A stretch of 64,000 nt of DNA from Pseudobdellovibrionaceae bacterium (GTDB taxonomy: Bacteria; Bdellovibrionota; Bdellovibrionia; Bdellovibrionales; UBA1609): NCBI GenBank assembly GCA_020635055.1, contig JACKAN010000015.1, forward strand, positions 6,235-70,234, in the 5' to 3' direction. Of this stretch, positions 15,722 through 57,795 are shown piece after piece. Position 1 is the first letter of the stretch. Each line of letters opens with the position of its first letter. A program made the translations under genes and the position numbers. The notes beneath the pieces were generated by a model, which was not told where the DNA came from, did no database searches, and was given only the letters and a program-made list of their open reading frames with translations.

Positions 15722-17365
15722 TCAATTTTCCTCTCTACGTTGAATCTTCATATCAAAGGCAAAAGCCACCCATCCCGGTTGTGCTTTGATGCTGGCTGGA
15801 GATTTTTTTACTTTTTTTCCAATAGCAATACTTTCTAAAGATTTTTCTAGTATGCTTAATGTATTTGGATCTTTGACTTCCCCTTCTAGCTTTAAGGCTT
15901 CATTTTCTAGTTGGAAATTTTTAATATTTAAATTGATTATTTTTTTTGAGGGTGTTTTTTGCGACACTAATGTGAGTATGTCTAGTGCTGAATTAATGAA
16001 TTGAAGGTTTTCAGTCATTTTAATATCTTTTTGTATTTTTTTTTGCTGATTAATATACTCATTTATTTTTTTAACGCTGACTTTGGTTCTTTTTATCTCT
16101 AAAATTTGTTCGCCATGATCGCGCAAGGCTTCTTCGGCCTTGTCAGACATACTTAAAGTAAAACTCTCGCGAACCATTCCGTAGACTAGAAAAAATATAA
16201 AAGTTGCAGCAGCAAGGCTTAAAGTGTGAGACCATTTATTTAAGTAAAGTTTAAAAGTCTGGCTTTCTTTTTTATACTCATCAACTCTTAAATTAATTGC
16301 AGGACTTTTTGGTTTTTTAAGGCCCTCAATGGCCAACCCAATGGCGGTTCCGGCAATAGGACCTTCAGCCGTTGAAATATTACCGGTCACTTCTTGCAAA
16401 GTGGACAGAACATCTATTTTTTTAAATGGAATTTCCGTCTTTTGTGTCAAATAGGCATTTAAGTTAACAAGCTGACTTAAACCACCGGTAATAGTGCCCT
16501 TAACAAAATTTAAGTTGTATAGACTTTTTAGTTCAAGAAGAGTGAGTTTTAACTGATTGGTTAGCTTGTCGATTTCACTTTTAAGCGCATCGGAACTTTT
16601 AATCTCATCTTGTGTAGCGACATCAGGATTGATGATTAATAAATCGCTCTTTTCAATTTCGCGAATGGCTTCAGTTATGTGTATGCTTTTTAAATTTGTT
16701 AGAGCTTTCGCTAAATCAATTCCACCCCAGTCAAAGTCACGGATTTCGACCACTAAACCTTTTCTGAGTACTACTAAATTGCTAACTTGATGACCGAGAT
16801 TAAGAAGGATCTCTGCGGGTTGCACAATATCAGAATTCTCTGAAATTTCATTACTGGGTGGAGCCTCCGACCAGGAAGTAAAGAGATTTGCCAGAGCTAA
16901 ATTATTTACACTTATAATATCAAGGGGGAAATTACAGTCTTCACTTAACTGGATTCTATTTTCAATAATTTTTTTGGGGCAAGCAAGAGCTAAAACTTCT
17001 GTCTGTGGTCCCAAGTAGGCAATGACTTTAGCACTAAAAATTATATCCTCTTGGGCTAGAGGGATCTCATCTTCCAATTCAAAGGGTATACTTTTTAGTA
17101 TTTTATGTCTTTCTTTAAATGGGAAAAGTAACTTGCGTACAGTCAGTTGACTGGTTGCAATTCCTAAAATGTATTTAGTATTAGAGGGATCATACTCTTG
17201 GGATAAATTTCTTAGTGCATCTAGGATTTCAATTTCTTTATCTTTATTAGGGTCTATACTTAATGGAATTTTAAGAAAGCGATTGAGTTTAAAACCCCTG
17301 TTAGTTGATTCGATTTCAACGACTTTGATACTATAGCTACCAATATCTATTCCTAAGCTGACCAT
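15722..17365 (-). CDS. gspL: type II secretion system protein GspL (actin-like/PilM-like N-domain)
   Basis: N-terminus SLGIDIGSYSIKVVEIE (actin-like ATPase fold as in GspL/PilM), a central TM (LSLAAATFIFFLVYGMV) and a periplasmic C-domain. Confidence 0.7.
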   Translation of the reverse strand: MVSLGIDIGSYSIKVVEIESTNRGFKLNRFLKIPLSIDPNKDKEIEILDALRNLSQEYDPSNTKYILGIATSQLTVRKLLFPFKERHKILKSIPFELEDEIPLAQEDIIFSAKVIAYLGPQTEVLALACPKKIIENRIQLSEDCNFPLDIISVNNLALANLFTSWSEAPPSNEISENSDIVQPAEILLNLGHQVSNLVVLRKGLVVEIRDFDWGGIDLAKALTNLKSIHITEAIREIEKSDLLIINPDVATQDEIKSSDALKSEIDKLTNQLKLTLLELKSLYNLNFVKGTITGGLSQLVNLNAYLTQKTEIPFKKIDVLSTLQEVTGNISTAEGPIAGTAIGLAIEGLKKPKSPAINLRVDEYKKESQTFKLYLNKWSHTLSLAAATFIFFLVYGMVRESFTLSMSDKAEEALRDHGEQILEIKRTKVSVKKINEYINQQKKIQKDIKMTENLQFINSALDILTLVSQKTPSKKIINLNIKNFQLENEALKLEGEVKDPNTLSILEKSLESIAIGKKVKKSPASIKAQPGWVAFAFDMKIQRREEN

Positions 17366-17417
17366 AGAGTAGAATTACCTCACACCTTTATAATTAGTGC
17401 AAGGTAAGACCCTCGCA

Positions 17418-17450
17418 GATCCCAGCGTGCGAATTTCCCGCACTGGGCTC
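17418..17450 (-). ncRNA. group II intron domain V (catalytic hairpin)
   Basis: Minus strand reads GAGCCCAGUGCGG-GAAA-UUCGCACGCUGGGAUC. It has the AGC triad, a GAAA tetraloop and a 2-nt bulge on the 3' strand, 22 nt after the RT stop codon. Confidence 0.7.
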
Positions 17451-17471
17451 CTCAAAATCAGATTCAGTTTA

Positions 17472-18854
17472 TCAGTAAACATAGTTACTCCCAAGTTGTT
17501 TGAGCTTTAACGATTCCCATGGTTCCACTAAAGGAAAGTTTCTGATTCTTTCTTTGAATCCATCCCAAGAGTAGGACCTCTTCTGACTTCTCCGGTTTAA
17601 CCATTTAAACAATGATTGAATGGCCTTCCGATAGAAGTAGTGAAGTTTGAGGTTGTTCATTGCATAGCCATAGTAATTGAAGTGTCCCACAATCTTTGAT
17701 TTCGCAAGTTTCCAGATGGTTGACAGTTTGGTTCTGTTTCTAATATTCTTGATCCAGACATCCCACTCACGAAAAGCACTTACCAGCTTTTCTTTCTGAG
17801 TTTTTACTTTCAACATCTTCTTCTTTTGCTGTTTACCCCAATAAAAGGTAAATCCTAGGAAGTTAAAGCTATTGTGCTTATCCTTTCCTAGAATCAGAGT
17901 GCGGGTTTTGTCTTCATTTAGCTTAAGCCCAAATTTTCCTACACGGAGTGCTAAATCCTGTAGAAATCTTATGGAATCATCTTCTTTTTTGAAAAAGAAG
18001 ACTGCATCATCAGCATATCTCACGATGACATTGTTGCAGGAGGCGTAGTTTTCTAGAAACCACTGATCCAGAACTTCGTTAAGATAGATATTTGCGAGTA
18101 TCGGACTCATTATGGATCCTTGTGGTGTGCCGATCTCACTGGGGATATTTTCACCATGTGAGATAAGGCCACCTTTCATGAATCGTCCAATAAGGCCTTT
18201 AAACTTATTGTCAGAGATTTTTCGACCCAAAATTTTCATCAATTTTCGATGAGATATTGTGTTGAAGAAATTTGAGAAGTCTATTTCTACCACATTTTTC
18301 CGCTGATTCTTGAATAAAGAATAGTAGCAGGCTTCAATTGCCTTATGCGCAGACCTTCCGGGTCTGTACCCGAAGGAATTACGTATAAATAGCGGCTCAT
18401 AGATTTGTGTTAGAATTTTTCCAACCACCCAATCTACCAGTTTGTCTTCAAAGCATGTGATGGCAATGGGCCTTGTTTTGCCATTGGCCTTAGGAATAAG
18501 AACTTCTCTTTTTGGTTTTGGCTTATAGGATCCGTTTTTAACTTTGACTTCTAAATTAAAAAGATTTTCCTCTAAGTTTTTACCATACTCAGACTTACTG
18601 ATACCATCCACACCCAAGGCCTTTGATCCATCTAAAGCTTTGAATGCCTCTTTGAAAGAGTCCACATGAAAATGTGTTAGGAGGTTTTCGAACACAAAAT
18701 GTTTACTTTGTGCTTTTAGACCTATTCTTGCCCAACGACTTTGCGACAGGTCTGTGAGACCTGTCGCGATCTGCTTCGAATGCACCCCTCTGTAGAGGCT
18801 CGAAGTGCTTGTTGCAAGATCCTGATCTTGTCGACCCCTTTGCTCCTTTGGCAT
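17472..18854 (-). CDS. ltrA: group II intron reverse transcriptase/maturase
   Basis: RT blocks 0-7 (GVDGISK, RPIAITCFEDKLV, FGYRPGRSAH, IDFSNFFNTISH, GTPQGSIMSPILANIYL, VRYADDAVFFF, LKLNEDKT) plus a maturase X domain. No HNH endonuclease domain. Confidence 0.92.
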   Translation of the reverse strand: MPKEQRGRQDQDLATSTSSLYRGVHSKQIATGLTDLSQSRWARIGLKAQSKHFVFENLLTHFHVDSFKEAFKALDGSKALGVDGISKSEYGKNLEENLFNLEVKVKNGSYKPKPKREVLIPKANGKTRPIAITCFEDKLVDWVVGKILTQIYEPLFIRNSFGYRPGRSAHKAIEACYYSLFKNQRKNVVEIDFSNFFNTISHRKLMKILGRKISDNKFKGLIGRFMKGGLISHGENIPSEIGTPQGSIMSPILANIYLNEVLDQWFLENYASCNNVIVRYADDAVFFFKKEDDSIRFLQDLALRVGKFGLKLNEDKTRTLILGKDKHNSFNFLGFTFYWGKQQKKKMLKVKTQKEKLVSAFREWDVWIKNIRNRTKLSTIWKLAKSKIVGHFNYYGYAMNNLKLHYFYRKAIQSLFKWLNRRSQKRSYSWDGFKERIRNFPLVEPWESLKLKQLGSNYVY

Positions 18855-19268
18855 TACCCAACCTCAACGCTAATATGAGTCGATCTGACTTCTGTAAGAA
18901 GCTTCACACTTGTCTTAAGGTTGTCCCTCTTGAGTTCGTATTTTAACATCCGTTTCCATCTCCTTACAGATCTCCCAAGTTCCGACGTTTACTGTATCTA
19001 CATGCCATGCTCTTGGACCCCGGAAAGGCCAGAGTCAATTTTGACTCTGATATTGCCTTCGCTTCTTCATACCCACTCGGCCCTTTCACATCACCATTAT
19101 CTCTCGGGGCTCTATCACTTAAAGGTGATATTCCACCTAATGGCCTGCAGACTCTCTGTCTACACTTCACGAGCTTCGTTGCCTAACTCGCGCAAGACTC
19201 GATACAAGGCCTCTGTCCCCAGAGCTACCTTGGAAGGACTTGACGACTATTGTTAACCGTCGCACCTT

Positions 19269-30271: not shown

Positions 30272-31042
30272 TTGCTTTTTAGAAAGCATGAGTCAAAAAA
30301 GACTCTAGGGGAAAATGGGGAGGGGAATATGCGAGATGTGGTTATATTTAATGGTCTAAATGCACTAGACTTTCATGAGATTAGAGACAGTGTGATTCGA
30401 ATACCAGAAGTGAGTATTCGTGTGCGGGAAGCTCAGGGAGTATGGGACGCCTTGGGGGAGTCTAATTTTAGTTTTTTTAATTTTCTGGTTTCAGAAGATG
30501 CCACTTACTTGAGTAACATAAAAATTAAAAGTTTGGTGACATCCATTGTTCAAATTGGTTTGTATGATAGATATGTTCGAAGATTTGGCCGTCCAGAATA
30601 TATTGTGGGGAGTGTCAATGGAGATTCACCATTGCAAGTATGTATTGGGGAGACCACTTTTGAAGATATGATTCTGGATAGTCCAGTGGCAAAACCAGTG
30701 GCATCAGTTACTGAAATTTTTAGTCAGAGCAGTTCCACAGTACTTTCAGGAATCTCACTGGCTGAAACCGGAGTGTTTCAACATTTAGAAAACACAGGGA
30801 AATACCAACGTGTTTCTTCAACTAAACAGGACTTAGGAAAAATTATTTCTCATCTTATCGAGGACTGTCATGTTAAAAAATTAATTAATGTAGGTCCTGG
30901 CATTACGGCTTTGGAGCCTTTGCAAGAAAATTTAGCATTAAAAGATATTCAAATTGTAGAATCTATTGATGCTGATCCCATGTTGAATTGGTTTTGGATG
31001 GAGTTGAAGAAATCTTCCGAACAGGTTTCAATGGCCCAATAA
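30272..31042 (+). CDS. hypothetical protein (start possibly ATG at 30329)
   Basis: 256-aa ORF divergent from gspC. No confident family. Weak resemblance to the acyltransferase fold, lacking the GHSxG nucleophile. Confidence 0.5.
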   Translation: MLFRKHESKKTLGENGEGNMRDVVIFNGLNALDFHEIRDSVIRIPEVSIRVREAQGVWDALGESNFSFFNFLVSEDATYLSNIKIKSLVTSIVQIGLYDRYVRRFGRPEYIVGSVNGDSPLQVCIGETTFEDMILDSPVAKPVASVTEIFSQSSSTVLSGISLAETGVFQHLENTGKYQRVSSTKQDLGKIISHLIEDCHVKKLINVGPGITALEPLQENLALKDIQIVESIDADPMLNWFWMELKKSSEQVSMAQ

Positions 31043-32121: not shown

Positions 32122-35106
32122 ATGAACAGGATGTCAGTAGTTAACCTTAATAAAAAAATACTTGCTCAAGTAAGAAGTTACTTGCAACTGCGATATTGTT
32201 CTAGCATTTCCAAGCTTTCCAACAAGATGGTTTTTTCGATGCCTATTGCCTTTGTCATTTCGTTCTTTTTACTTTCGAATGTTCATGCACAGTCACCACA
32301 GGGTCTGACATTGCAAGGAACAATTCTCAATGCCAGTGATCTTCCCCAAGAGGGAGCTTCAGTAAGCTTTGTCATTCAAATTTTATCTTCAGATGGTAAT
32401 GCCTGCTTACTTTACGAAGAGTCCCATGTTTTAAATATGACAGGCTCTCAGGGTGCTTTTTCTTTGATACTGGGCACAGGAACTCGCAGTGGAGTGAATT
32501 ATGAAGACACAAATACTCTAGCTTTAGCTATGGACAACACTTTGGGCGTACAGAGTTCACTTACTTGTGCCGTTGGAAGCACTTACGATCCAGCACCGGG
32601 AGATTCCAGAGATGTATTAATTAGTTTTAACGACGGTTCGGGAGTACAAACTCTAACACAAAATTTATTAGTTCAATCTGTGCCCTATGCTTTCTATACA
32701 GATAACACAGAAAGACTGCAAGGTAAGCTTGCAACAGATTTTATTCAAGTCAATACGGCTACAGCTTCGCTATCGCAAGTAAATATTGAAAATGTATTTT
32801 CCACTACAAATTATCCCAATTTAGTTGATTTACTTTCTGTATCTCCCACAGAGTATGTTCGCACAGGATCAAACGGTTCAGCTTCGATACCACAAATTAC
32901 TGGCAATCCTGGGTCAGGTTTAGCCGCAGGTCAAATATGGTATGACGATGCTGCCAATTTAGTAAAATATTATGATGGCACAATGGTGCAATCACTGTCG
33001 GGTTCTGGTTCTGGAGATTTAGTCTCAACAAATAACTTAAGTGATATTAGTAATGCTGCTACAGCTAGAACTAATCTAGGATTAGCTATTGGTACCAATG
33101 TACAAGCTTTCGATGCACAATTAACAGATGTGGCTGGCTTAGACCCCAGTACAACTTCTGGTTATTTACTTGGCTCGGATGGCACAAATTTAGTTATGCG
33201 CTCACCAGCCAATGCTCGAAGTGATTTAGGTTTAGGAACAGCGGCAACGAGTTCCACTGGAGATTTCTTACAAGTCACAAATAACTTAAGTGATATTAGT
33301 AATGCTGGAACAGCCAGAACTAATTTAGGATTAGCTATTGGTACCAATGTACAAGCTTTCGATGCACAATTAACAGATGTAGCTGGTTTAACCCCTACAG
33401 CAGATAATTTTGTAAGCGGTGATGGTACTAATTTAGTGATGAAAACTCCAGCGCAAGCGCGCACAAGTCTTGGACTTGGTACGGCTGCAACTAGTGCATC
33501 TGGTGATTTTTTACAAGTTACAAATAACTTAAGTGATATCGGTAGTGCCGCAACCGCACGCACTAATTTAGGTTTAGGAACCGCAGCCTTACTTTCTGAA
33601 GATTCAAATAACACATTCGCTAATGGTCAACTTGTTGCTTTTGATAGTGCAACAATGACATGCGCAGCAGGTGAATATTTAACCATTCAAGGACCAGGCC
33701 CCACTTATTCTTACACCTGCGGAACTCCATCCGCGACAGATTCCACAAAATTACCACTAGCCGGTGGCACTATGACTGGTCCTTTGGTGAATAATTCAAA
33801 TTCGGCATCTACGGCCTTAGCGATAACTCAATCCGGAGCAGGGCACGCAGCCACTTTTATGGGAGGCAATGTCGGTATTGGGACTACAACACCTAGTTAT
33901 CCTCTTTCGGTAATTGGTAATACGAATGTTTTAGGTACGTTATCTGCAACCTCAATTACTTCTTCAAACCTTTCTACTTTCAATGGTGGAGTGATTGCAA
34001 CGTTAACAAGTTCCACCTTTCCATATAGTGGTACAAGTGCCTCAATATCAAACGCAGGAACTAGAAAAGTAATGCAAATGAGCATGTCTCCAAATCCTAC
34101 AGCGGACTATACAACGAACTACTATAATGGTGATTTTTTAACTGTAGCAAGTACAGCTAATAATCAAAATTCCGGGAAATATGTAACAATTAATTCAGCA
34201 TCTACTCATACGGGAACAGGTACAGTCCTTGATATGACGGGTGGGGATTTTTCAATTACTAATTCAACGGGGACAATCACCGATGGATTTGGGTTAAAAA
34301 CCTCAATCACAAATTCAGCTACGGTAACCAATGCATACGGTCTCTATGTCGGCAATATTCAGGGAACTAACCGATATTCAATTTATAGCTCGGATAGTAA
34401 TGCTCCCTCTTTCTTCGCAGGCAACATGGGGATAGGCGTTTCTTCTCCGGCAAGACTTTTAAACGTAGCAGGACCTATTCGAGTTAATCCTGCAGCCTTA
34501 CCTGGAACTCCAGGAGCTGGTGATATCGCTATAGACAGTGGAGCAAGTAATGCCCTTAAATATTATAATGGAAGTTCATGGGTTACAGTAGGTTCGGGTA
34601 GTGGAGATTTAGTTTCAACAAATAACTTAAGTGATTTAAGCAATGCTGGAACAGCTAGAACCAATTTAGGATTAGCTATTGGTACCAATGTACAAGCTTT
34701 CGATGCTCAACTTACTGATGTAGCTGGTTTAACACCCACAGCCGATAATTTTGTAAGTGGTGATGGCACTAATTTAGTGATGAAAACTCCTGCTCAAGCG
34801 CGCACGAGTCTTGGACTTGGTACTGCAGCCACCAATGCCACTGGAGATTTCTTACAAGTTACAAATAACTTAAGTGATCTTGGTAGTGCCACAACCGCAC
34901 GCACTAATTTAGGTTTAGGAACAGCAGCCTTACTTTCTGAAGATTCAAATAACACATTCGCTAATGGTCAATTAGTAGCTTTTGATAGTGCAACAATGAC
35001 ATGCGTTGCAGGTGAATATTTAACCATTCAAGGACGAGATATTTTAAAATGTTGTGGATTAGTTATCCAGCGACAACCTTTTCGGTTTTTTTATCTTCTA
35101 CAATAA
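32122..35106 (+). CDS. tail-fibre-like surface fibre protein, N-terminal fragment (native sequence ends at 35035; last 23 codons read into IS256)
   Basis: Signal-like segment (MVFSMPIAFVISFFLLSNVHA) and five NNLSD..ARTNLGL(A/G) repeats, as in phage tail fibres. The tail ..RDILKCCGLVIQRQPFRFFYLLQ is IS-derived. Confidence 0.8.
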   Translation: MNRMSVVNLNKKILAQVRSYLQLRYCSSISKLSNKMVFSMPIAFVISFFLLSNVHAQSPQGLTLQGTILNASDLPQEGASVSFVIQILSSDGNACLLYEESHVLNMTGSQGAFSLILGTGTRSGVNYEDTNTLALAMDNTLGVQSSLTCAVGSTYDPAPGDSRDVLISFNDGSGVQTLTQNLLVQSVPYAFYTDNTERLQGKLATDFIQVNTATASLSQVNIENVFSTTNYPNLVDLLSVSPTEYVRTGSNGSASIPQITGNPGSGLAAGQIWYDDAANLVKYYDGTMVQSLSGSGSGDLVSTNNLSDISNAATARTNLGLAIGTNVQAFDAQLTDVAGLDPSTTSGYLLGSDGTNLVMRSPANARSDLGLGTAATSSTGDFLQVTNNLSDISNAGTARTNLGLAIGTNVQAFDAQLTDVAGLTPTADNFVSGDGTNLVMKTPAQARTSLGLGTAATSASGDFLQVTNNLSDIGSAATARTNLGLGTAALLSEDSNNTFANGQLVAFDSATMTCAAGEYLTIQGPGPTYSYTCGTPSATDSTKLPLAGGTMTGPLVNNSNSASTALAITQSGAGHAATFMGGNVGIGTTTPSYPLSVIGNTNVLGTLSATSITSSNLSTFNGGVIATLTSSTFPYSGTSASISNAGTRKVMQMSMSPNPTADYTTNYYNGDFLTVASTANNQNSGKYVTINSASTHTGTGTVLDMTGGDFSITNSTGTITDGFGLKTSITNSATVTNAYGLYVGNIQGTNRYSIYSSDSNAPSFFAGNMGIGVSSPARLLNVAGPIRVNPAALPGTPGAGDIAIDSGASNALKYYNGSSWVTVGSGSGDLVSTNNLSDLSNAGTARTNLGLAIGTNVQAFDAQLTDVAGLTPTADNFVSGDGTNLVMKTPAQARTSLGLGTAATNATGDFLQVTNNLSDLGSATTARTNLGLGTAALLSEDSNNTFANGQLVAFDSATMTCVAGEYLTIQGRDILKCCGLVIQRQPFRFFYLLQ

Positions 35107-36399
35107 TGCCATCCTTGTAAGCAACCCCATTTAATAGCTTTGTAAACTCTTTAACCCCACATAATCTTAGCCAGTGGCTTTCACATTGTTTTAACAACTT
35201 AAAAGTCATGGCCGTAGCAGAGTTAATACTGCCGGCACCCTTAGTTGATTTTAAACGACTCTTTACTCCAGCAAATGATGACTCTATAGGGTTACTAGTT
35301 CTTATGCTACGCCAGTGTGCTGCTGGGAAATCAAAAAAATTATTTAATTCATTCCAGTTTTTAGTTAAACAAGTAACCATCTTTGGATATTTATTTTCAT
35401 AAGCTTTTGAAAAATTATTTTTTATTTTAGTCGCTGTTTCTTTATCTGGTGCCCGCATCATTTCATGTAACTGTGATTTAATTGCTGGCTGAAGTTTTTT
35501 AGGACACTTATCTAATACATTGGCTATCTTATGTACCCAGCAACGCTGGTGTTTTGTTTTTTTAAATTCTTCTAAACTTTCAAGGGCTGACCAAAATCCT
35601 AAAGCCCCATCTGCTATAGCCAATAGAGGACAGTTTAAACCCCTGGCTATTAAAGACCTTAATACAACTAACCAGGACTCCTTAGACTCCCTGTAACCGG
35701 CTTCTACAGCTAATAATTTCTTTTCACCATCTTGAGTTACACCCATGATTACCAACAAGTTTAAACGCTTGTCTTCTCCGATTCGAATAGATACATTGAC
35801 CCCATCAGCCCAGAGGTAAACAAACTCATCTGTGATTTTACTTTTTTTCCATACCTGATACTCCTCCTCCCAGCGTCTTTTTAATTTACTAATACTTCCT
35901 GCTGAAAGGCCTTGAGAAAAATGATCCTTTAATATTTTATCAAATTTATTTGTTGAAACACCTGATAAGTAAAGTGCGGGAATTAAACTCTCTATTTTGG
36001 GGGACCGTCTTATATAAGCTGGTAATAAATTAGAGGAAAACTTAAAGCCATCACGTTTGTCATTTACTCTAGGGGTCTTGATTTCAATAGCACCAGCAGC
36101 TGTAGTGATTTTCCTAGACTTGCTGCTTCCATTTTTTACTACTAATCGGTGCCCAGAATCATCAATAAGGCTTTGATGATTATTAATATACTCCTCAACT
36201 TCCAGCTGTAAAGCTTGTTGGAGCATCTTTTTGGCCCCTTCTTTAACTACATCATCTAAGTTGATTGATTCGGATTTTTCGGTTACTATTTTTAGCATAG
36301 CAGCTCTCCTTTTGCTCATTTAATGAGCGGTTTTTAGTGAAACCTTAGGTTATGCCGCTATATTTTCTTTTTCAAATCCACAACATTCTGCAATATCTC
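35036..36399 (-). mobile_element. IS256-family insertion sequence (1364 bp) with 9-bp target site duplication
   Basis: 25-nt terminal IRs (35036-35060 and 36375-36399, 22 of 25 identical). TSD TTCAAGGAC at 35027-35035 and 36400-36408. Single transposase ORF. Confidence 0.9.
35063..36319 (-). CDS. IS256-family (Mutator-type) transposase
   Basis: 418 aa with YLWADGV (D), AIADGALG (D) and the QRCWVHKIANVLDK signature, plus NPIES..F (E) typical of IS256/MULE DDE enzymes. Confidence 0.93.
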   Translation of the reverse strand: MSKRRAAMLKIVTEKSESINLDDVVKEGAKKMLQQALQLEVEEYINNHQSLIDDSGHRLVVKNGSSKSRKITTAAGAIEIKTPRVNDKRDGFKFSSNLLPAYIRRSPKIESLIPALYLSGVSTNKFDKILKDHFSQGLSAGSISKLKRRWEEEYQVWKKSKITDEFVYLWADGVNVSIRIGEDKRLNLLVIMGVTQDGEKKLLAVEAGYRESKESWLVVLRSLIARGLNCPLLAIADGALGFWSALESLEEFKKTKHQRCWVHKIANVLDKCPKKLQPAIKSQLHEMMRAPDKETATKIKNNFSKAYENKYPKMVTCLTKNWNELNNFFDFPAAHWRSIRTSNPIESSFAGVKSRLKSTKGAGSINSATAMTFKLLKQCESHWLRLCGVKEFTKLLNGVAYKDGIIVEDKKTEKVVAG

Positions 36400-36485
36400 T
36401 TCAAGGACCAGGCCCCACTTATTCTTACACCTGTGGAACTCCATCCGCGACAGATTCCACAAAATTACCTCTCGCTGGTGGCACT

Positions 36486-38318
36486 ATGACTGGTCCTTTA
36501 GTTAATAACTCAAATTCGGCATCTACGGCCTTAGCGATAACTCAATCCGGAGCAGGATATGGCGCAACAATTGAGGGCGGCAACGTCGGTATAGGCACAT
36601 CCACTCCCTCCTCATTATTAACGATCAAAGCAGCCACTACTGGGGAGCACATGGCAATAAAGAATAGCGCTAATAACTCCGTTTTTACTTTTGGTTCAAC
36701 GGCAGCGGGAAATCATGGTTTGCTTTCGGTGAATACCGGCACAGGGGTTGAATCCGTCACGATGAGAGGAGATCATAACTCGGGAGCCTATATCTTTGTG
36801 GATGCACAAAGAAATAAACCTGATGGAGGAGCGAACGGATATGGCGCCGGTTTGGCAATCAAATCTCCATTTGTGGTGAATCAGGAGAATGGAATATTTT
36901 TTCTCAACGGACCAGTTTTGAGTGATAAAGCGGGAGCAGCAGTGACTTTCTATACCTCAGATATCGGCGACTACGGGCGAGGTGGTCTCAAATTTAAAAC
37001 AACAGCCTCAGGATCTGTGGCAACACGAATGACAATTGATCCAACAGGAAACGTTGGAATTGGAACGGCGGTGCCGACAAGTAAATTACATGTTTTCGAC
37101 GGCATAGCTGCAGCAGGTACTGCTGCTCCCTCTGTCTTGCAAGTCATCGGTGGAACAAATGCTGTCGATGCTCCAGGTGCTAATCCTGCCGGAGGCATTA
37201 TAATTTCATCGGCCAATGGAGGCGGAACCAATTTTAATTTGGGTGGAAACGTCGATATATCAGCTGGGTATGGCGGCAACGGCGGGAATGTAACTCTCTC
37301 CGCAGGAAAGTATCAAGGAGCTCTTGCTACGACTCCAAGCCAACTGACTCTTGGAGGATCTGGATCTGTGACTTCCGGAGCAGCGACTCTTGGATCGGGA
37401 TATACAAATTTTGTCGCAGCAAGCTCTGGCTCACTGAGTTTATTCACTCCGAATGCATATTCTAGCTATGGAAGGGGCGGTAACATTTCAATTATGGCAG
37501 GCAATGGTTCTACAGGGGTATCCGGAGGAGCTTCGGACTTTGGAGGAACAATTAGCATCACGGCAGGAAATGGAGGGGTTCAGCAAAATCTAGCCGGTTC
37601 TAATGTTGTCATTAACCCTGGCGCAGGTGGCGGAACAGGGGCCTCCGGAAATATTATCCTTGGTAATCTTCAAGGCAACGTCGGTGTGGGTACGACCACC
37701 CCTGGTGCGAAGCTGGATGTCACCGACACGAGCACGACAACTAGTGCGATCGTTGTTCCACGCGCAGCAAATTTTACTGGTACTAGTCTTAACGGTATGA
37801 TCCGCTACAACACATCTTCTACATTATTCGAGTTTTATCAAAACGGCACTTGGGTGAACTATACAACTGTATCGGATGGTCGCTTGAAAACAAATGTGAC
37901 CCCAGTGGATCAGGGACTTGAAATTGTGAATCAACTGAACCCAGTATTCTACGATTGGGAACGCAGCAATCCTAAAGCTTCGAGCTTTGAAAATAAACAC
38001 CAAGTGGGTTTTATTGCCCAGGAAGTTGAAGAAGTCTTACCTGAAGTTGTTAATAAAGGCGAGGACGGCTACAGGTCACTCGAGTATGGAAAGATCGTCT
38101 CCGTGGTCGTAGCGGCTGTTAAAGAGCTTTATGCGAAAGTTATGGGGCATGAAGAGAAAATCCAGGCCCAAGACCGTCAAATTGCCTCTAAAGCTGATAA
38201 AACCGAAGTGGATGCGAAGGTTCAGAAGCTTGAATCTGAAAACGAAAAACTAAAACAAGAAAATGATGCAATCAAAGCTCGCCTTGAGAAAATCGAGAAA
38301 GCCCTCAACTCAAAATAA
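36486..38318 (+). CDS. tail-fibre-like surface fibre protein, C-terminal fragment (native reading frame actually resumes at 36409)
   Basis: Gly-rich beta-helix-like repeats, then SDGRLKTNV (37872) plus FIAQEVEEVLPEVV, an S74-type intramolecular chaperone signature, then heptad coiled coil (..KLESENEKLKQENDAIKARLEKIEKAL). Confidence 0.8.
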   Translation: MTGPLVNNSNSASTALAITQSGAGYGATIEGGNVGIGTSTPSSLLTIKAATTGEHMAIKNSANNSVFTFGSTAAGNHGLLSVNTGTGVESVTMRGDHNSGAYIFVDAQRNKPDGGANGYGAGLAIKSPFVVNQENGIFFLNGPVLSDKAGAAVTFYTSDIGDYGRGGLKFKTTASGSVATRMTIDPTGNVGIGTAVPTSKLHVFDGIAAAGTAAPSVLQVIGGTNAVDAPGANPAGGIIISSANGGGTNFNLGGNVDISAGYGGNGGNVTLSAGKYQGALATTPSQLTLGGSGSVTSGAATLGSGYTNFVAASSGSLSLFTPNAYSSYGRGGNISIMAGNGSTGVSGGASDFGGTISITAGNGGVQQNLAGSNVVINPGAGGGTGASGNIILGNLQGNVGVGTTTPGAKLDVTDTSTTTSAIVVPRAANFTGTSLNGMIRYNTSSTLFEFYQNGTWVNYTTVSDGRLKTNVTPVDQGLEIVNQLNPVFYDWERSNPKASSFENKHQVGFIAQEVEEVLPEVVNKGEDGYRSLEYGKIVSVVVAAVKELYAKVMGHEEKIQAQDRQIASKADKTEVDAKVQKLESENEKLKQENDAIKARLEKIEKALNSK

Positions 38319-38332
38319 AAGGGTTTTTATCA

Positions 38333-39157
38333 TCACAGAAGTTTACTTAAAGAAGCACAGTCGCTGCGCAATAGGTAGTCCATGGCTAGTATAGATTTGT
38401 CGAGGGCTTCTTTGAAATAAATAAGATGAGGAGCTGTAATGAGCATTACATTTTTTTGTTTTGTGGATAGGTCTTTTTCAAAGTGTTGTGTGGCATTGCA
38501 TGAAAATAATCCTAAAACGGATAAGGGCTTTTTAATTTTTTTAAAATAATTGAGAATCAAAGAAAAACTGCCATAGCCATTTTTATACTTTGCGAAGTCG
38601 ACTTGATTGTCTTTTTTAATTATAGGTGGGGAAAAATCTGGACCGCCTCCGGCTCGCGAGTGACCATTGTAGAATAAAATATCGGCCTGCTGAAGAGATA
38701 ATAAAAACTCTTTTTTTGCACGCTGGCTCATCCAGGATTGGAAAGGATGGTTGCGATTTTCTTCGTCATCTTCGCTGACAGAACTGTGAATGATCCTTAA
38801 ATTAATTTTTTTGCCATTCCATTGTTTATTAAAAAGATAGGCGTCTTTTTTATCTCTTTCAAAGCCACAGAGAACATTGTTGTCTATACATTTTTGAGTG
38901 AGGTGATAAATGACCACATTTCGTTCATAACGGTCACCAACGAAACGAGCGGGGCGAGCATCTTTATAGCCAATAATATATGTGATATTGATTTTAGCTT
39001 TCTTTTGTAAATAAGAAGTTGTGTTTTCACAGGAATTTCCAGATATAGTGGCGGCAGCCATAAAGCTTAATGTTTGAATAAACATTAGTAATGCGAAACA
39101 CATAGCCTTTGAGATATTTTTCCAATAAATAACTTTATAGATTTTAGGAGCTACCAA
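38333..39157 (-). CDS. secreted hypothetical protein with caspase-fold-like His...Cys order
   Basis: Signal/TM (FALLMFIQTLSFMAAA), ..ILFYNGHSRAGGGPDF.. then ..VLGLFSCNATQHF... The His-Gly...Cys order resembles clan CD peptidases. Weak. Confidence 0.45.
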   Translation of the reverse strand: MVAPKIYKVIYWKNISKAMCFALLMFIQTLSFMAAATISGNSCENTTSYLQKKAKINITYIIGYKDARPARFVGDRYERNVVIYHLTQKCIDNNVLCGFERDKKDAYLFNKQWNGKKINLRIIHSSVSEDDEENRNHPFQSWMSQRAKKEFLLSLQQADILFYNGHSRAGGGPDFSPPIIKKDNQVDFAKYKNGYGSFSLILNYFKKIKKPLSVLGLFSCNATQHFEKDLSTKQKNVMLITAPHLIYFKEALDKSILAMDYLLRSDCASLSKLL

Positions 39158-39876
39158 TTGATCTCCTTAGAGTTTTTTTTCTCTAGGCAAAGCTTTCTGA
39201 CGTACTTATTCTTATCTTTTTCACAAGAGGAAAAATCAATAAAATAATAAGGAAGTGAGTAAAGCACTTGCAAACGAATCTGATACCAAGGGCTAGCTAA
39301 GGCGATACTCGCTAAACTCTTGAACTCCTTATTGCTAAACTGACCCTTGAGTCGTCGTAAATAATTAAGAGTGCTGGATTGAATTTCGAAGTTTCCATTG
39401 CTCAGCCAATTTTCAATGAGTGCTATTTCTAATTTGTATTTCATGCGCCCAAGAGTATCCATCATAATAATTCTTGCAGGTAGGGAAGCATCGCTATTTT
39501 TCAAGCGCAAAGCATATAAGCCAATGAGCGACTCCCGCGAGTTTTTAGTAATAAGAGAGTTCATTGCCAAATAAAGGTGTCCGGTTTGATCTTCTTTAGA
39601 GTACTTAACCAGTATGTCCATCATACTATAAAGTTTTAAAGAGGCGATGATATCAGCAGCTAATTCCCTGTTTTGATTGCTTTGAATGGCTTGTATGAGT
39701 TCGGCTCGCAAATGGGGGTAGAGTTTTAAAGATTCAATAGAAGATTTCTGTACAGTCCAACTTTCACCAAAAAGGCGTTTGCCATATTCTGTCCAATGTC
39801 GAAGTTCCGTGGCTTTTTTTGTAGCCCCCAAAGTTACAGCCCCATAACCAAAAAAAATGAAAACTAACCAACGCAT
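39151..39876 (-). CDS. secreted helical-repeat (HEAT/ARM-like) protein
   Basis: Signal peptide (MRWLVFIFFGYGAVTLGA) and repetitive helical hairpins. Overlaps the downstream gene by 7 nt. Confidence 0.45.
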   Translation of the reverse strand: MRWLVFIFFGYGAVTLGATKKATELRHWTEYGKRLFGESWTVQKSSIESLKLYPHLRAELIQAIQSNQNRELAADIIASLKLYSMMDILVKYSKEDQTGHLYLAMNSLITKNSRESLIGLYALRLKNSDASLPARIIMMDTLGRMKYKLEIALIENWLSNGNFEIQSSTLNYLRRLKGQFSNKEFKSLASIALASPWYQIRLQVLYSLPYYFIDFSSCEKDKNKYVRKLCLEKKNSKEINW

Positions 39877-39962
39877 CCAAAAATTGTAACACTTTTGGGT
39901 TCCAGGTCCTATTGCTTATTACAGTATGTCATAAGGTATGGTTTTTGCTCTGAATATAGCTT

Positions 39963-40925
39963 GTGTTAATTTACAGTATGGTTGCTTATTATATAGGCTT
40001 TCAGAGCCTGGAATTGTTTAGGTTTTTTGCAAGAAAATCGTTTTTTGTAGTTGCTATACTATTATGTTGTTTTCCCACTATGGCTAAAGATATTGATATC
40101 ACGAATTTCTATAAAAATTTGGGGATTGAAAACTTAAGTCAAATCCTTGTTCCTGAAGTTAAAGTTGATCCTATCGACTTGTTGGTAAGTCATTGGGCAC
40201 AACGCGAAAAGGGCAGTTCTAATCAAAAAGCTAGAGTTACAAATCACAAAGTAGATTATATTAAAAAAAGAGTGGAGTTTAGAAATTTAAAAGGAATAAA
40301 GGTTACGGGATTTTTGTTAACTCCAGTTGGCCCAAATTTACCCCGCCAATTACCTACGGTGATTTTTCACCATCAAGAAGGAGCCCCTAAAAAATTAGGC
40401 TCTGAAGAAATCTTCTCTAGAGATCAAACTTGGCAGTGGGCTGAGTTATTGATGAATCAGGGTTACATGGTTTTAGCTATAGATAGTTTAGATCATGGGC
40501 AGCGTTTTCATGATGAAGAGGTTGATTATATTAAATATTGGAACTTGCATCGTCATCAAATTCAATTATTGGATGATATTCAGGCGTACTTATTTTTAAG
40601 AAAAACAAAGTCAGTGGGCAATATTGCAATTTTAAATGTTTCCACTTCCACTGAACGCAGTCAAAGGCTCCAAGAGGCGTTGGTATCAGAAGAGAAGTTG
40701 CCACTAGTGCAGTGGTCACAAAGCGAGTGGCCTAACATTGATGCCTACGAGCTTGTGAAAAAATTGAACTTGCATTTACTAAATAGCCCCCATAAACCAA
40801 GGCTTTCCAATGCATTTTTTCTGAAAATGATAAATCAGATTCAACAAAAAAGAATTTATGGCGTACATTGTAATGAGACTCTCAACAACAATTCATTATC
40901 CCCAGAGCAGGGCGTGTTATTTTAA
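39963..40925 (+). CDS. hypothetical secreted protein (alpha/beta-hydrolase-like)
   Basis: TM/signal, ..VIFHHQEGAP..MVLAIDSLDHGQR.. resembling the dienelactone-hydrolase-type N-terminal half. No clear nucleophile elbow. Confidence 0.4.
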   Translation: MLIYSMVAYYIGFQSLELFRFFARKSFFVVAILLCCFPTMAKDIDITNFYKNLGIENLSQILVPEVKVDPIDLLVSHWAQREKGSSNQKARVTNHKVDYIKKRVEFRNLKGIKVTGFLLTPVGPNLPRQLPTVIFHHQEGAPKKLGSEEIFSRDQTWQWAELLMNQGYMVLAIDSLDHGQRFHDEEVDYIKYWNLHRHQIQLLDDIQAYLFLRKTKSVGNIAILNVSTSTERSQRLQEALVSEEKLPLVQWSQSEWPNIDAYELVKKLNLHLLNSPHKPRLSNAFFLKMINQIQQKRIYGVHCNETLNNNSLSPEQGVLF

Positions 40926-55407: not shown

Positions 55408-55845
55408 ATGTCAAAACCTGTTAAATTAAGAATCAAGAATAAACAACACATGGAGGTGTTAAGGATGGACAATACAATATTAAGAAAAAAATTAAATACA
55501 TACAAATCCCCAAAAGGCTCACTTAAAGGTATGAGTCACGAGGTGATTCTTGAGGTACTACAGGCTTGGCAAAACTGGCCCGGCAGTACAGCAGATCTTT
55601 ATAGGGATTTGGGGCTTAGTAAAGGTCAAATGTCTGCTTTGATTCGTGCAGGAAAGAAGCTGGTAAAAAATGGTGCTGTTGTTGAGAGTGAATTTAAAGA
55701 GGTAAAGGTGGAATCAGTGCCTGTATATGATGATAACTGTAACTCCCCTATTACTGTGAAGTGGGACAGGAATAAGGTGATCCGTTTTTCACAAGTGGAT
55801 CAATTAGTGGATTTTTTAAATAAAGTGGAGAAGAAAGCCGCGTGA
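55408..55845 (+). CDS. tnpA: IS66-family accessory protein TnpA (orf1)
   Basis: Small HTH-like protein immediately upstream of, and overlapping (4 nt), the IS66 orf2. The start may be an internal Met (MDNTIL.. at 55465). Confidence 0.65.
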   Translation: MSKPVKLRIKNKQHMEVLRMDNTILRKKLNTYKSPKGSLKGMSHEVILEVLQAWQNWPGSTADLYRDLGLSKGQMSALIRAGKKLVKNGAVVESEFKEVKVESVPVYDDNCNSPITVKWDRNKVIRFSQVDQLVDFLNKVEKKAA

Positions 55846-56246
55846 TTGCCTTTAATCGTACAACAAAGATATATGTAAGTAAGGAGCCCACGGACATGCG
55901 GGCTTCTTACGACACATTATTTAACAAAGCAAAGTCGGTATTAGAAAAGGATCCCTTTTCGGGTCATTTGTTTGTATTTATAAACCGGTTAAGAACGTCG
56001 ATGAAGTGTCTATATTACGACGGCACGGGATTAGTTATAGTGTCCAAGCGTTTAGAGCGCGGCACGTTTTCGAAGATAAATCCATTTTACAAGAAAGAAA
56101 TTGTATTAACTCAGGCGGAGTTTTCATTGTATTTTGAGGGTGCAGATTTAGAGAAAAGATTTATTGATTCCCCGAGTGAAATAAAAAAAAGTTATCAAAA
56201 AAACACATGCCGCAACGGGAGTGCGTTGCAAAATTTAATCGTGTAA
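55842..56246 (+). CDS. tnpB: IS66-family accessory protein TnpB (orf2)
   Basis: ..IYVSKEPTDMRASYDTL...DPFSGHLFVFINRLRTSMKCLYYDGTGLVIVSKRLERGTF.. is the conserved IS66 Orf2 pattern. Confidence 0.9.
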   Translation: MIAFNRTTKIYVSKEPTDMRASYDTLFNKAKSVLEKDPFSGHLFVFINRLRTSMKCLYYDGTGLVIVSKRLERGTFSKINPFYKKEIVLTQAEFSLYFEGADLEKRFIDSPSEIKKSYQKNTCRNGSALQNLIV

Positions 56247-57790
56247 TTTGTAATGCTCGAATGGATCAAAAAGAATTATTTAAACCTATTCCTGTTGATA
56301 AGCTTTCAACATTTTCAAAAGAAGAATTAATAATTTTACTTCGTGGTGAGCAGCAAATAAGACAACAGATTGAAAAAGAAGTTGATCGTCTTCGGGCGTC
56401 GAACAATGAATTGGAGCAAAAGTCATTTTACATAGAAGAGCAGTACATCACGATCAAGAACAAATATTTTGGTAAGAGTTCCGAGAGAGAACCTAGCGAA
56501 AATGATCGTAAAAAGCACCTTAAAAAGAACAAAAAAATGAAGAAGAAAGTTCAGCTTCCGTCGCTTCGCTACCCTGACGCTCCGTTAATAGAGCGAGAAG
56601 TGACATTAGATAACTTACCCAGTTGTAAATGCTGTGGCACAGAGATGAGCGACTCTGGGATGACAGAGAACAGTGAGTTTTTAACAGCGGTACCTCAGCA
56701 ATTTTTTGTCATCCGTCAAAAACGTCATAAGTACAGATGTGGTAAATGTCATGGAGATATAGTGACAGCGCCTTCACCACCAAGAATAAAACCAGGCTCT
56801 AGTTACAGTGATGAGATGATGTTGGATGTAGCCTTAAGTAAGTACTGTGACCTGATCCCAGTAGAGAGGTACTCGAGTATAGCAGGAAGAGCTGGGTTAA
56901 TGGATTTACCGCCGCAGAGTTTAATCGGGACAACTCATAATGTGGCTGATTATGTTGAAGGGGCTTACAGTAAAGTAAAAAAAGAAATCACAATTGAAAA
57001 AGTATTAAATGCCGATGAAACGCCCCACAGGATGTTAGAAGACCACGGAGATAAGAGTTGGTACTTGTGGGGGTTTTCGACAAGGAGAAGCAGTTATTTT
57101 GAGATCCACGACACCCGAAGTGGTGACGTAGCTTCTGAGATTTTAAATAAATCAAAATGTGAATATTTAGTGAGTGATGTATTTAGTGGTTATGCCAAAG
57201 CCGTACGAGTGAGTAACGTTTACCGTAAAGAAAACAAGCTGCCACTATTAAAAAACGTTTATTGCAATGCTCATGCGAGGCGTAAGTTTAAGGAAGCCGC
57301 AGAGAAGTATACAGATGAGGCACAGTATTTTATAGAGGCGTATAAAAAGATCTATCGATTGGAAAAGATAGCCAAAGCTCGTCCCCCAAGTCGGGTTTTA
57401 CGAGTCCGCAGGTTAATGACAAAATTGTTTGAGGAAATGAAGGAAACTGCTATCGAAAATGTAGCTGGCTACTCTAGTAAAAGTAAGATAGCTATTGCAA
57501 TGAAGTACTTCCTTAAAAATTATGAGGGGTTGACGTTATTTATAAAAAATAAAGAATTACCCATAGACAACAACTCACAGGAACGGCAAATGAGGAGTCC
57601 AGTTATTGGTCGAAAAACTTGGTATGGAACTCACTCAAAAAGAGGGGCCAGGACAACAGCCATATTATTTTCCTTAGTAGAGTCTTGTAAACTCAACAAT
57701 GTAAATCCAAGAGAATATTTTAAAAAACTAGTCGAAGATCTCCACAAAGGCAAAGAACCCTATACCCCCAAAGATTACGCTGACTTATAA
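56207..57790 (+). CDS. tnpC: IS66-family DDE transposase TnpC (start likely Met at 56261)
   Basis: Leucine-zipper N-terminus, zinc-finger CKCCG..CGKCHG, and a DDE core (NADETPHRML.., LVSDVFSGY, YCNAHARRKF). Confidence 0.9.
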   Translation: MPQRECVAKFNRVICNARMDQKELFKPIPVDKLSTFSKEELIILLRGEQQIRQQIEKEVDRLRASNNELEQKSFYIEEQYITIKNKYFGKSSEREPSENDRKKHLKKNKKMKKKVQLPSLRYPDAPLIEREVTLDNLPSCKCCGTEMSDSGMTENSEFLTAVPQQFFVIRQKRHKYRCGKCHGDIVTAPSPPRIKPGSSYSDEMMLDVALSKYCDLIPVERYSSIAGRAGLMDLPPQSLIGTTHNVADYVEGAYSKVKKEITIEKVLNADETPHRMLEDHGDKSWYLWGFSTRRSSYFEIHDTRSGDVASEILNKSKCEYLVSDVFSGYAKAVRVSNVYRKENKLPLLKNVYCNAHARRKFKEAAEKYTDEAQYFIEAYKKIYRLEKIAKARPPSRVLRVRRLMTKLFEEMKETAIENVAGYSSKSKIAIAMKYFLKNYEGLTLFIKNKELPIDNNSQERQMRSPVIGRKTWYGTHSKRGARTTAILFSLVESCKLNNVNPREYFKKLVEDLHKGKEPYTPKDYADL

Positions 57791-57795
57791 GAGTC

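Follow-up and report, generated by a model that had tools for sequence, protein, structure and literature searches.

A MAT-family fibre gene with old in-frame duplicated modules is split by an IS256-family element in an uncultured Pseudobdellovibrionaceae genome

The present study analyzes an interrupted fibre gene in a window of 64,000 nucleotides, the whole stretch of DNA that was analysed, taken from a metagenome-assembled genome (MAG) with locus-tag prefix H6625; source names of the matching records are Bdellovibrionaceae or Pseudobdellovibrionaceae. The source organism is uncultured and its genome is low in GC (about 38%). The gene lies on the forward strand at 32122-38318. Upstream of it are a rhomboid gene and gspE, gspD and gspC of type II secretion, and downstream of it a gene for a cytochrome c. 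At present it is read as an N-terminal ORF of 994 aa (32122-35106), the last 23 codons of which lie inside an insertion sequence (IS), with the C-terminal part left as an orphan ORF at 36486-38318; the truncated part is on record at NCBI, with 100% identity, as protein MCB9026870.1 (H6625_11165). Removal in silico of the IS and one copy of its target-site duplication (TSD) restores a gene of 4824 bp encoding 1607 aa plus a stop codon.

Along the repaired protein, with all fibre features on the forward strand, a probable signal peptide read by eye (aa 36-56, 32227-32289) is followed by Bdello_MAT_N, the cell-proximal conserved N-terminal domain (aa 49-211, 32266-32754). The stalk would be built of supermodules, each comprising a connector, two or three NNLSD repeats, a two-cysteine knob, an LPLAGGTMTG collar and GNVGIG. 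In supermodule 1 the first 83-aa tail-fibre repeat unit of NNLSD/'LGLAIGTNVQAFDAQL' type (33001-33249; direct repeats D2, D4 and D7, spacing 249) matches the short tail fibre gp92 of PDB 9zd7 (E 4e-12) as well as PHROG tail-fibre entries. Module A (33277-33896) then supplies a full NNLSD unit, a partial unit, the knob TMTCAAGEYLTIQGPGPTYSYTCG, the collar KLPLAGGTMTGPL and GNVGIG. The region that follows, 33897-34617, starts with an internal beta-rich insert cassette (aa 592-766, 33895-34419), the last 70-80 aa of which find matches inside the family members P0012 (2146-2215 of 2752), P0004 (788-851 of 2111) and P0011 (534-616 of 2055), and goes on with a connector into supermodule 2 (aa 767-827, 34420-34602, GNMGIGVSSPARLLNVAGPIRVNPAALPGTPGAGDIAIDSGASNALKYYNGSSW...) that is 87-90% identical to two connectors of the probable paralogue P0001 and recurs seven times in P0004 and four times in P0019. 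Module B is in two pieces on either side of the IS, a left part of 418 bp (34618-35035) with 91.6% identity to 33277-33694 and a right part of 202 bp (36409-36610), which matches 33695-33842 at 95% over its first 148 bp and has diverged over the remaining 54 bp or so. Beyond it lie the fibre tip region of GNVGIG-begun beta-helix-type segments (36611-37871), a Peptidase_S74 intramolecular chaperone/autoprotease that starts at the catalytic motif SDGRLK (37872-38051; PF13884), and a tail that is probably a coiled coil, with weak coiled-coil-type Pfam matches, ending in the stop codon (38052-38318). Residues 1134-1312 are weakly similar in sequence to the MAT crystal structures 8ond (bd2133; E 7e-7) and 8oml, 8on4 and 8ojn (E 3e-4 to 4e-3), and the last 214 aa share 74-75% identity with the C-terminal ends of two proteins that have unrelated stalks, P0007 and P0009.

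The interrupted gene is a MAT fibre of the S74 type, chromosomal and not of phage. Assignment to the family follows from the NCBIfam model Bdello_MAT_N (NF053851.1), which matched over profile positions 4-161 of 162 at E 6.8e-39 and 133.3 bits against a cut-off of 60 bits, and not from single-sequence or profile searching: the N-terminal domain alone returned one protein, and an N-terminus profile built from 14 family members gave short fragments only, where named all from proteins labelled Bdellovibrionota. A Pfam scan of the N-terminal 994 aa gave no family. The family was defined by Caulton et al. 2024 (PMC10769870), and its criteria include an intertwined trimeric beta-helix/prism stalk as well as display on the predator surface and binding to prey epitopes. 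Here we found the conserved domain of about 130 aa, beta-rich and right after the signal peptide; the signal peptide itself, judged by inspection alone, is the hydrophobic MVFSMPIAFVISFFLLSNVHA followed by QSPQG, kept in paralogues, with the ...AQ/(S/T)PQG junction seen in P0001 and P0121. Also found were the S74 domain (PF13884, E 5.9e-18), with its SDxxxK motif as SDGRLK at aa 1460 of the repaired protein, and a mosaic build in which, against paralogues, one end is conserved and the tip diversified. Members of the S74 subfamily of Bdellovibrio bacteriovorus (e.g. Bd3182; PMC10769870) likewise have a signal peptide and then the conserved domain, a long repetitive stalk with beta-helix segments begun by GNxGIG, a C-terminal S74 chaperone/protease with SDxxxK, and a mosaic of a conserved end common to paralogues and a tip common to unrelated members. 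The present gene differs from these in its source, an uncultured Pseudobdellovibrionaceae MAG, in the NNLSD phage-fibre repeats and 447-codon tandem duplication of its stalk, and in being split by an IS. With phage tail fibres (T4-like long and short; PDB 9zd7 gp92 and 6f45, a long tail fibre distal subunit) it shares NNLSD/ARxNLGL repeats, the LPLAGGTMTG collar and an S74-type C-terminus. Unlike them it sits in a bacterial chromosome beside housekeeping genes, with no prophage, and carries a signal peptide and a Bdellovibrio-specific N-terminal domain. The NNLSD/ARxNLGL, collar and S74-type motifs are classic recombination joints in the evolution of phage fibres.

An earlier note on this DNA had described modules A and B as co-linear over 620 bp, about 90% identical, different mostly at synonymous third positions and offset by an in-frame 1341 bp, and alignment bears out each part of that description. 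The two align without gaps over 620 bp with 557/620 identities (89.8%), which is far above chance. A repeat finder paired 33277-33576 with 34618-34917 (90%, spacing 1341) and 33686-33893 with 36400-36607 (88%, spacing 2714), and self-blastn of the repaired gene gave 566 bp at 92.6% without gaps and with an offset of 1341 bp (447 codons, 0 mod 3). Differences fall at third codon positions in 47/61 cases, 41 of the changed codons are synonymous and 11 non-synonymous, and amino-acid identity is 94.7%. From the dS of 0.38 and dN/dS of 0.085 it is clear that the duplication is old and that both copies have been selected, so that A and B have long coexisted without collapse or homogenisation. Values of dS fall from 0.37-1.2 at the module ends to 0.16-0.24 in the middle, near the IS site, which could be an older conversion tract. 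The duplication reaches further upstream than 33277, with 33001-33148 matching 34591-34738 at 86%, and one 249-bp repeat unit of the first copy (33001-33249) has no counterpart in the second.

Supermodules number three in P0001, which the MAG also encodes (2, 3 and 2 repeat units), and two in the H6625_11165 gene (3 and 2), so module number does vary; the MAG thus holds five copies, two in the IS-split gene and three in the intact paralogue. P0001 lacks the insert cassette at one junction and has a different one at another. The N-terminal domains of the two proteins are 92% identical and their knob-collar and stalk modules 90-94%, whereas their tips share only 32-40%; a third, truncated paralogue has an N-terminal domain 93% identical. 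Large internal repeats that keep the frame are also frequent among other members, e.g. P0004, P0012 and P0034. The proposal of repeated cassettes that support domain shuffling thus survives in part, in that the gene is modular and that module number and tip differ in P0001. What fails is the claim that each module carries an alternative distal domain, because 33897-34617 is an internal beta cassette plus connector, both recurring internally in family members, and precedes the real tip in the same polypeptide chain instead of replacing it.

That module B is interrupted by an IS, another point of the note, was readily verified. The element occupies 1364 bp on the reverse strand (35036-36399), with terminal inverted repeats of 25 bp with 3 mismatches (35036-35060 and 36375-36399) and a perfect 9-bp TSD, TTCAAGGAC, at 35027-35035 and 36400-36408, where IS256 elements have inverted repeats and a TSD of 8-9 bp. 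Module A has this 9-mer once, uninterrupted as ATTCAAGGACCAGGCCCC, and the IS-free site of module B would lie around CCATTCAAGGACCAGGCC. The transposase gene (35063-36319, reverse strand, 418 aa) is intact and its product is an IS256-type (Mutator) DDE enzyme, scoring 288.7 bits with the equivalog NF033543 (cut-off 150 bits) and E 1.7e-67 with PF00872. Downstream of the element, 1910 bp of the fibre gene are still fully open. The NF033543 score, inverted repeats, perfect TSD, intact transposase and undecayed downstream frame establish a real and recent transposition. Resemblance to the family, e.g. staphylococcal IS256, extends to a transposase above the equivalog cut-off, a single ORF, a length of about 1.36 kb, imperfect inverted repeats, a 9-bp TSD and a surface-structure gene as target; the host belongs to another phylum and the H6625 locus gives no sign of reversibility. 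Within the window there is no second copy of this IS, and its exact transposase sequence was not found in the protein collection searched. The window encodes another IS256-family transposase, with which this one shares only 28% identity, and has several further mobile elements. Since the IS severs anchor and stalk from the tip and the S74 chaperone, the fibre gene is most likely now inactive.

A scan of genome contigs with the fibre protein returned nothing, and the same scan of metagenome contigs returned only distant, mostly marine, phage-like repeat proteins. The neighbouring GspD had relatives at 76-87% identity among genome contigs, none with a fibre gene at the locus, and no orthologous locus was found among them. 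In the closest genomes gspD-gspC-orf30272 is kept and synteny stops at window position 31042, where the segment with the rhomboid and fibre genes starts. No recombinase was present among the Pfam-scanned neighbours at 24-44 kb, an exclusion that is not absolute because Pfam assigned no family to the ORFs at 38333-40925, and the only strong inverted repeats in 31-40 kb were the IS ends. A site-specific switch of shufflon, invertase or integrase-cassette type, which would have an adjacent recombinase and short inverted or direct sites at the module borders, is not supported by these scans. We also rejected a diversity-generating retroelement (DGR) acting on the fibre gene, as the sole reverse transcriptase of the window (17472-18854) is that of a group II intron, being flanked by the intron RNA domains RF02005 and RF00029, and mismatches between A and B involve all bases and lie mainly at synonymous third positions against an expectation of adenine-specific change.

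Patterns detected are, with good confidence, best explained by a MAT fibre gene that was duplicated in frame long ago and recently split by an IS256-family element, with repeats that are no purpose-built mechanism. The gene would encode a secreted, phage-tail-fibre-like surface adhesin of a Bdellovibrio-like predator. An old tandem segmental duplication with a period of 447 codons would have placed two supermodules in series with the beta cassette between them, and much later the IS would have entered the knob of supermodule 2, making the 9-bp TSD, so that the N-terminal anchor and stalk lost their link to the tip and to the S74 domain, the chaperone on which trimerisation of such fibres would depend. 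We regard the repeats as part of the structure and evolution of the family and not as a device, and unequal recombination or slippage among them has likely changed stalk length and module number over evolutionary time.

Judged from the arrangement, three rare repair outcomes are allowed. Gene conversion with module A or a paralogous module as donor would give back the full 1607-aa gene; it is a simpler route that the earlier note overlooked, and with module A as template it would remove the IS precisely, having homology of 418 bp on one side of the IS and 202 bp on the other and keeping the 447 codons. Alternatively, a crossover of 33695-33842 with 36409-36556 would give a fibre of 1160 aa with one supermodule. 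The note had likewise expected an intact shorter ORF from a crossover right of the IS, and the in-silico product joining 32122-33896 to 36611-38318 does have an open frame of 1160 codons; the only interval for an IS-removing A x B crossover is that to the right (36409-36610). The third outcome would be precise excision of the IS via the TSD.

An alternative explanation, and the one that the note favoured, is that the adaptor cassettes form a built-in recombination system, active often enough to matter biologically, that frees the gene of the IS and shuffles alternative distal domains. The repeats do bracket the IS in frame with an open deletion product, paralogues do differ in module number and tips, and 'tip swapping' has been raised in the MAT paper, as speculation of its own authors (PMC10769870). 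We nevertheless consider such a system unlikely. Frame is kept automatically by any repeat translated within one ORF, a dS of 0.38 between copies speaks against frequent exchange, and useful homology right of the IS amounts to about 148 bp, with stretches of perfect identity of 47, 35, 25 and 23 bp. In addition, the region after module A is an internal cassette and not an alternative tip, no recombinase, invertase or DGR was found nearby, and the position of the IS has no evident tie to the repeat beyond chance.

A related reading, which we find quite improbable, is that the five near-identical supermodules are a recombination pool through which stalk length and tips of prey-recognition fibres vary on short time scales; if so, broken copies would be donors or would be repaired by conversion, and prey range would be varied by a cassette-style system. 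As in Neisseria pilE/pilS and Borrelia vlsE, an intact gene and truncated paralogues of a single genome share several near-identical modules, which could be exchanged by gene conversion. Unlike in those systems, there is no evident expression locus or silent cassette array in H6625, its module copies have long diverged independently, and conversion tracts are hypothetical. The IS might instead switch the adhsin ON and OFF by inserting reversibly and excising precisely at the 9-bp TSD, a model first put forward for IS256 in the ica operon of Staphylococcus epidermidis. An IS256-family element with a perfect TSD in an adhesin gene whose downstream part is undecayed is compatible with this, but the observation is a single one with no empty-site allele, the other mobile elements of the window suggest general IS activity, and for the ica/IS256 paradigm itself insertion is reported to outnumber precise excision by orders of magnitude, and the part played by the latter in phase variation is disputed (PMC13640169); phase variation is therefore very unlikely. 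Assembly artefact, in which similar modules were mis-joined or an IS copy was put in the wrong repeat of a MAG with repeated modules and several IS elements, is just as hard to credit, because the perfect TSD and exact colinearity with module A over the insertion point are signatures of true transposition, A and B differ at 63 positions and so are resolvable, frame is kept throughout, and the multi-module architecture occurs independently in the paralogue.

For the specialist there is nothing surprising in an ordinary IS knockout within a known family. MAT fibres have been proposed as the prey-recognition repertoire of Bdellovibrio-like predators, and the locus bears on how that repertoire diversifies, being a clear natural example of stalk supermodules duplicated in frame, their number differing between paralogues, and of a tip swapped with those of remote members of the family. 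In addition, it shows MAT-type genes as targets of IS elements and is a candidate locus for studies of allele heterogeneity in the source metagenome. Of practical value is a correction of annotation, by which two 'hypothetical' fragments and an IS become one MAT gene.

The structure of the fibre gene (32122-38318, plus strand) was correctly described in the earlier note, and the gene is one of a known family with an ordinary IS knockout. NCBI MCB9026870.1 (H6625_11165), annotated in a "Bdellovibrionaceae / Pseudobdellovibrionaceae bacterium" MAG, has the same sequence as its truncated product, and at the sequence level three features match the gene to the mosaic adhesive trimer (MAT) family: an N-terminal domain (residues 49-211) scoring 133.3 bits against NCBIfam NF053851.1, [quoted passage not shown] (cut-off 60 bits), a C-terminal Peptidase_S74 domain (5.9e-18) beginning at SDGRLK, and weak sequence matches of the tip region to the MAT crystal structures 8ond (bd2133, E 7e-7), 8oml, 8on4 and 8ojn. 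Caulton et al. (PMC10769870), who count 21 MAT genes in B. bacteriovorus, define these proteins by a signal peptide with an invariant N-terminal domain and by a trimeric beta-helical fibre ending in an S74 domain with SDxxxK or in another tip. Stalk repeats of the form NNLSD...ARTNLGL... are common to phage fibres and this gene, with a match to the short tail fibre gp92 (PDB 9zd7, E 4e-12) and many PHROG tail-fibre matches; a phage gene was ruled out, the neighbours being GspE, secretin GspD and GspC of type II secretion, a rhomboid protease and cytochrome c. No tRNA genes were found in the window.

In the repaired protein (positions in amino acids), a likely signal peptide (36-56) and the MAT N-terminal domain (49-211) are followed by a connector with YYDG at about 283 and by a first supermodule with NNLSD units starting at 304, 387 and 468, a two-cysteine knob at 524, a LPLAGGTMTGPL collar at 544 and GNVGIG at 582. 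Next come an insert cassette (592-766), a connector (GNMGIG...ARLLNVAGPI...YYNG, 767-827) and a second supermodule, with NNLSD units starting at 834 and 915, the knob where the IS sits at 971, a collar at 991 and GNVGIG at 1029; the tip has further GNVGIG segments at 1185 and 1394, and the S74 domain (from 1460) leads into a probably coiled-coil tail that ends at 1607. The region following module A, previously taken for an alternative distal domain, therefore consists of the insert cassette and connector, and belongs to the stalk: it precedes the true tip in the same chain and is no alternative to it. Both are internal and recurrent in related proteins: the conserved end of the cassette matches internal positions of P0012, P0004, P0106 and P0011, and the connector occurs in seven copies in P0004 and four in P0019. 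The ORF reaches 35 codons 5' of the likely signal peptide (32122-32226, MNRMSVVNLNKKILAQVRSYLQLRYCSSISKLSNK), which may belong to an extended signal-peptide region or stem from a mis-called start; a similar extension is present in the related protein P0001 (MCB9024800.1, 1780 aa).

The duplication lies where it had been reported. A repeat finder paired 33277-33576 with 34618-34917 (90%, spacing 1341) and 33686-33893 with 36400-36607 (88%, spacing 2714), and module A (33277-33896) aligned with spliced module B (34618-35035 plus 36409-36610) over 620 bp without gaps (557 identities, 89.8%); self-blastn of the repaired gene gave 566 bp at 92.6%, offset 1341 bp. Differences fell mostly at third positions, as had been noted by eye (10, 4 and 47 at codon positions 1, 2 and 3), and the codon differences were synonymous in 41 cases and non-synonymous in 11 (Nei-Gojobori dS 0.38, dN 0.032, dN/dS 0.085). 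The duplication exceeds the module first recognized, 33001-33148 matching 34591-34738 (86%), and from the alignments copy 2 looks like copy 1 less one 249-bp repeat unit. Divergence was uneven, with dS 0.37-0.42 in the first 300 bp of the module, 0.16-0.24 in the central knob-collar part around the IS site (33577-33816 versus 34918-36530, module offsets 300-540) and 1.2 in the last 78 bp; the low central value could reflect past gene conversion in this tract or tighter constraint on codons.

The IS (35036-36399, 1364 bp) has 25-bp terminal inverted repeats with 3 mismatches and a minus-strand transposase gene of 418 aa, matching the NCBIfam IS256 equivalog model (288.7 bits, cut-off 150) and Pfam Transposase_mut (1.7e-67). 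A perfect 9-bp duplication, TTCAAGGAC, lies on both sides, the uninterrupted form in module A being ATTCAAGGACCAGGCCCC, and taking out the IS with one duplication copy gives a 4824-bp ORF of 1607 aa. The insertion is probably recent relative to the A/B duplication, because the 1910 bp 3' of the IS contain no stop codons and the transposase is intact.

Crossover between A and B would be in frame, as proposed, and in silico an exchange between 33695-33896 and 36409-36610 loses 2714 bp, with the IS and 447 codons, and the remaining frame is open over 1160 aa. The further suggestion of a built-in device for excision or shuffling has no support beyond this geometry. In-frame spacing is unavoidable because both copies are translated in one ORF, and with dS at 0.38 the copies have long persisted without collapse or homogenisation. 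Homology right of the IS is short (202 bp, 86%), with similarity only over the first 148 bp (95%; perfect runs of 47, 35, 25 and 23 bp); such homology is usable by RecA-dependent recombination, but inefficiently. No recombinase or DGR was found near the fibre gene, and a DGR was rejected since the reverse transcriptase in the vicinity is that of a group II intron and the A/B mismatches are without adenine bias. A route absent from the earlier account is non-crossover gene conversion with module A as template (418 bp homology left, 202 bp right), or with the three P0001 modules as alternative templates, which would remove the IS exactly and leave the gene at full length. A third would be TSD-mediated precise excision; for IS256 itself, such excision is reported to occur orders of magnitude less often than insertion (PMC13640169).

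The modular, shuffled architecture that had been suggested is real, and is typical of MAT fibres. P0001 has three supermodules, with 2, 3 and 2 NNLSD units, versus two with 3 and 2 here, and it lacks a cassette after the first supermodule and has a different one after the second. Relative to the window gene it is 92% identical in the N-terminal domain, 90-94% in the knob-collar modules and 32-40% in the tip/S74. The C-terminal 214 aa of the window gene, by contrast, share 74-75% identity with P0007 and P0009, which have unrelated stalks; a P0001-like N-terminus and stalk joined to a P0007/P0009-like C-terminus make the gene a textbook mosaic. H6625_09655 (MCB9026569.1, P0121) and H6625_11165 are 302 genes apart by locus tag and 301 by accession number, and MCB9024800 extrapolates to about H6625_00785; thus P0001 and the window gene are very probably paralogues within one genome, so that module copy number would vary among paralogues. 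The MAT N-terminal domain, at 92-93% identity, occurs in at least two further genes on other contigs of the MAG: P0001, which is intact with its three supermodules, and P0121, a 323-aa truncated copy (93%) ending inside its first NNLSD unit (...LGLSIGTDRCSSL), apparently through a frameshift or some other disruption.

The nearest genomes compared, with GspD 76% and 87% identical, keep gspD-gspC-orf30272 and carry unrelated genes from window position 31042 on. Synteny ends exactly after ORF 30272-31042 (versus L081 1-7616 and L090 1-2112, contigs of Pseudobdellovibrionaceae/Bdellovibrionales MAGs), and the genes beyond the breakpoint there (GNAT-like, TolC-like and ResB/CcsA-like ORFs, cytochrome c) were not found anywhere in the 64-kb window. 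This places the rhomboid/fibre segment at a point of rearrangement or insertion, which fits an accessory, mobile position of the fibre gene. Downstream neighbours at 38333-39157 and 39151-39876 (both minus) and 39963-40925 (plus) have no Pfam match. Elsewhere, a complete minus-strand group II intron (17364-19242) has a PilM-like gene on one side and further minus-strand genes on the other, its D1-D4 (19008-19242, Rfam RF02005) and domain V/VI (17364-17452, RF00029) flanking a 460-aa reverse transcriptase ORF (17472-18854). A mobile-element cluster at 55408-59037 comprises two small ORFs (55408-55845, 55842-56246), an IS66-family transposase (56207-57790) and, directly after it, a second transposase of the Mutator/IS256 family (57796-59037), which shares only 28% identity with that in the fibre gene.
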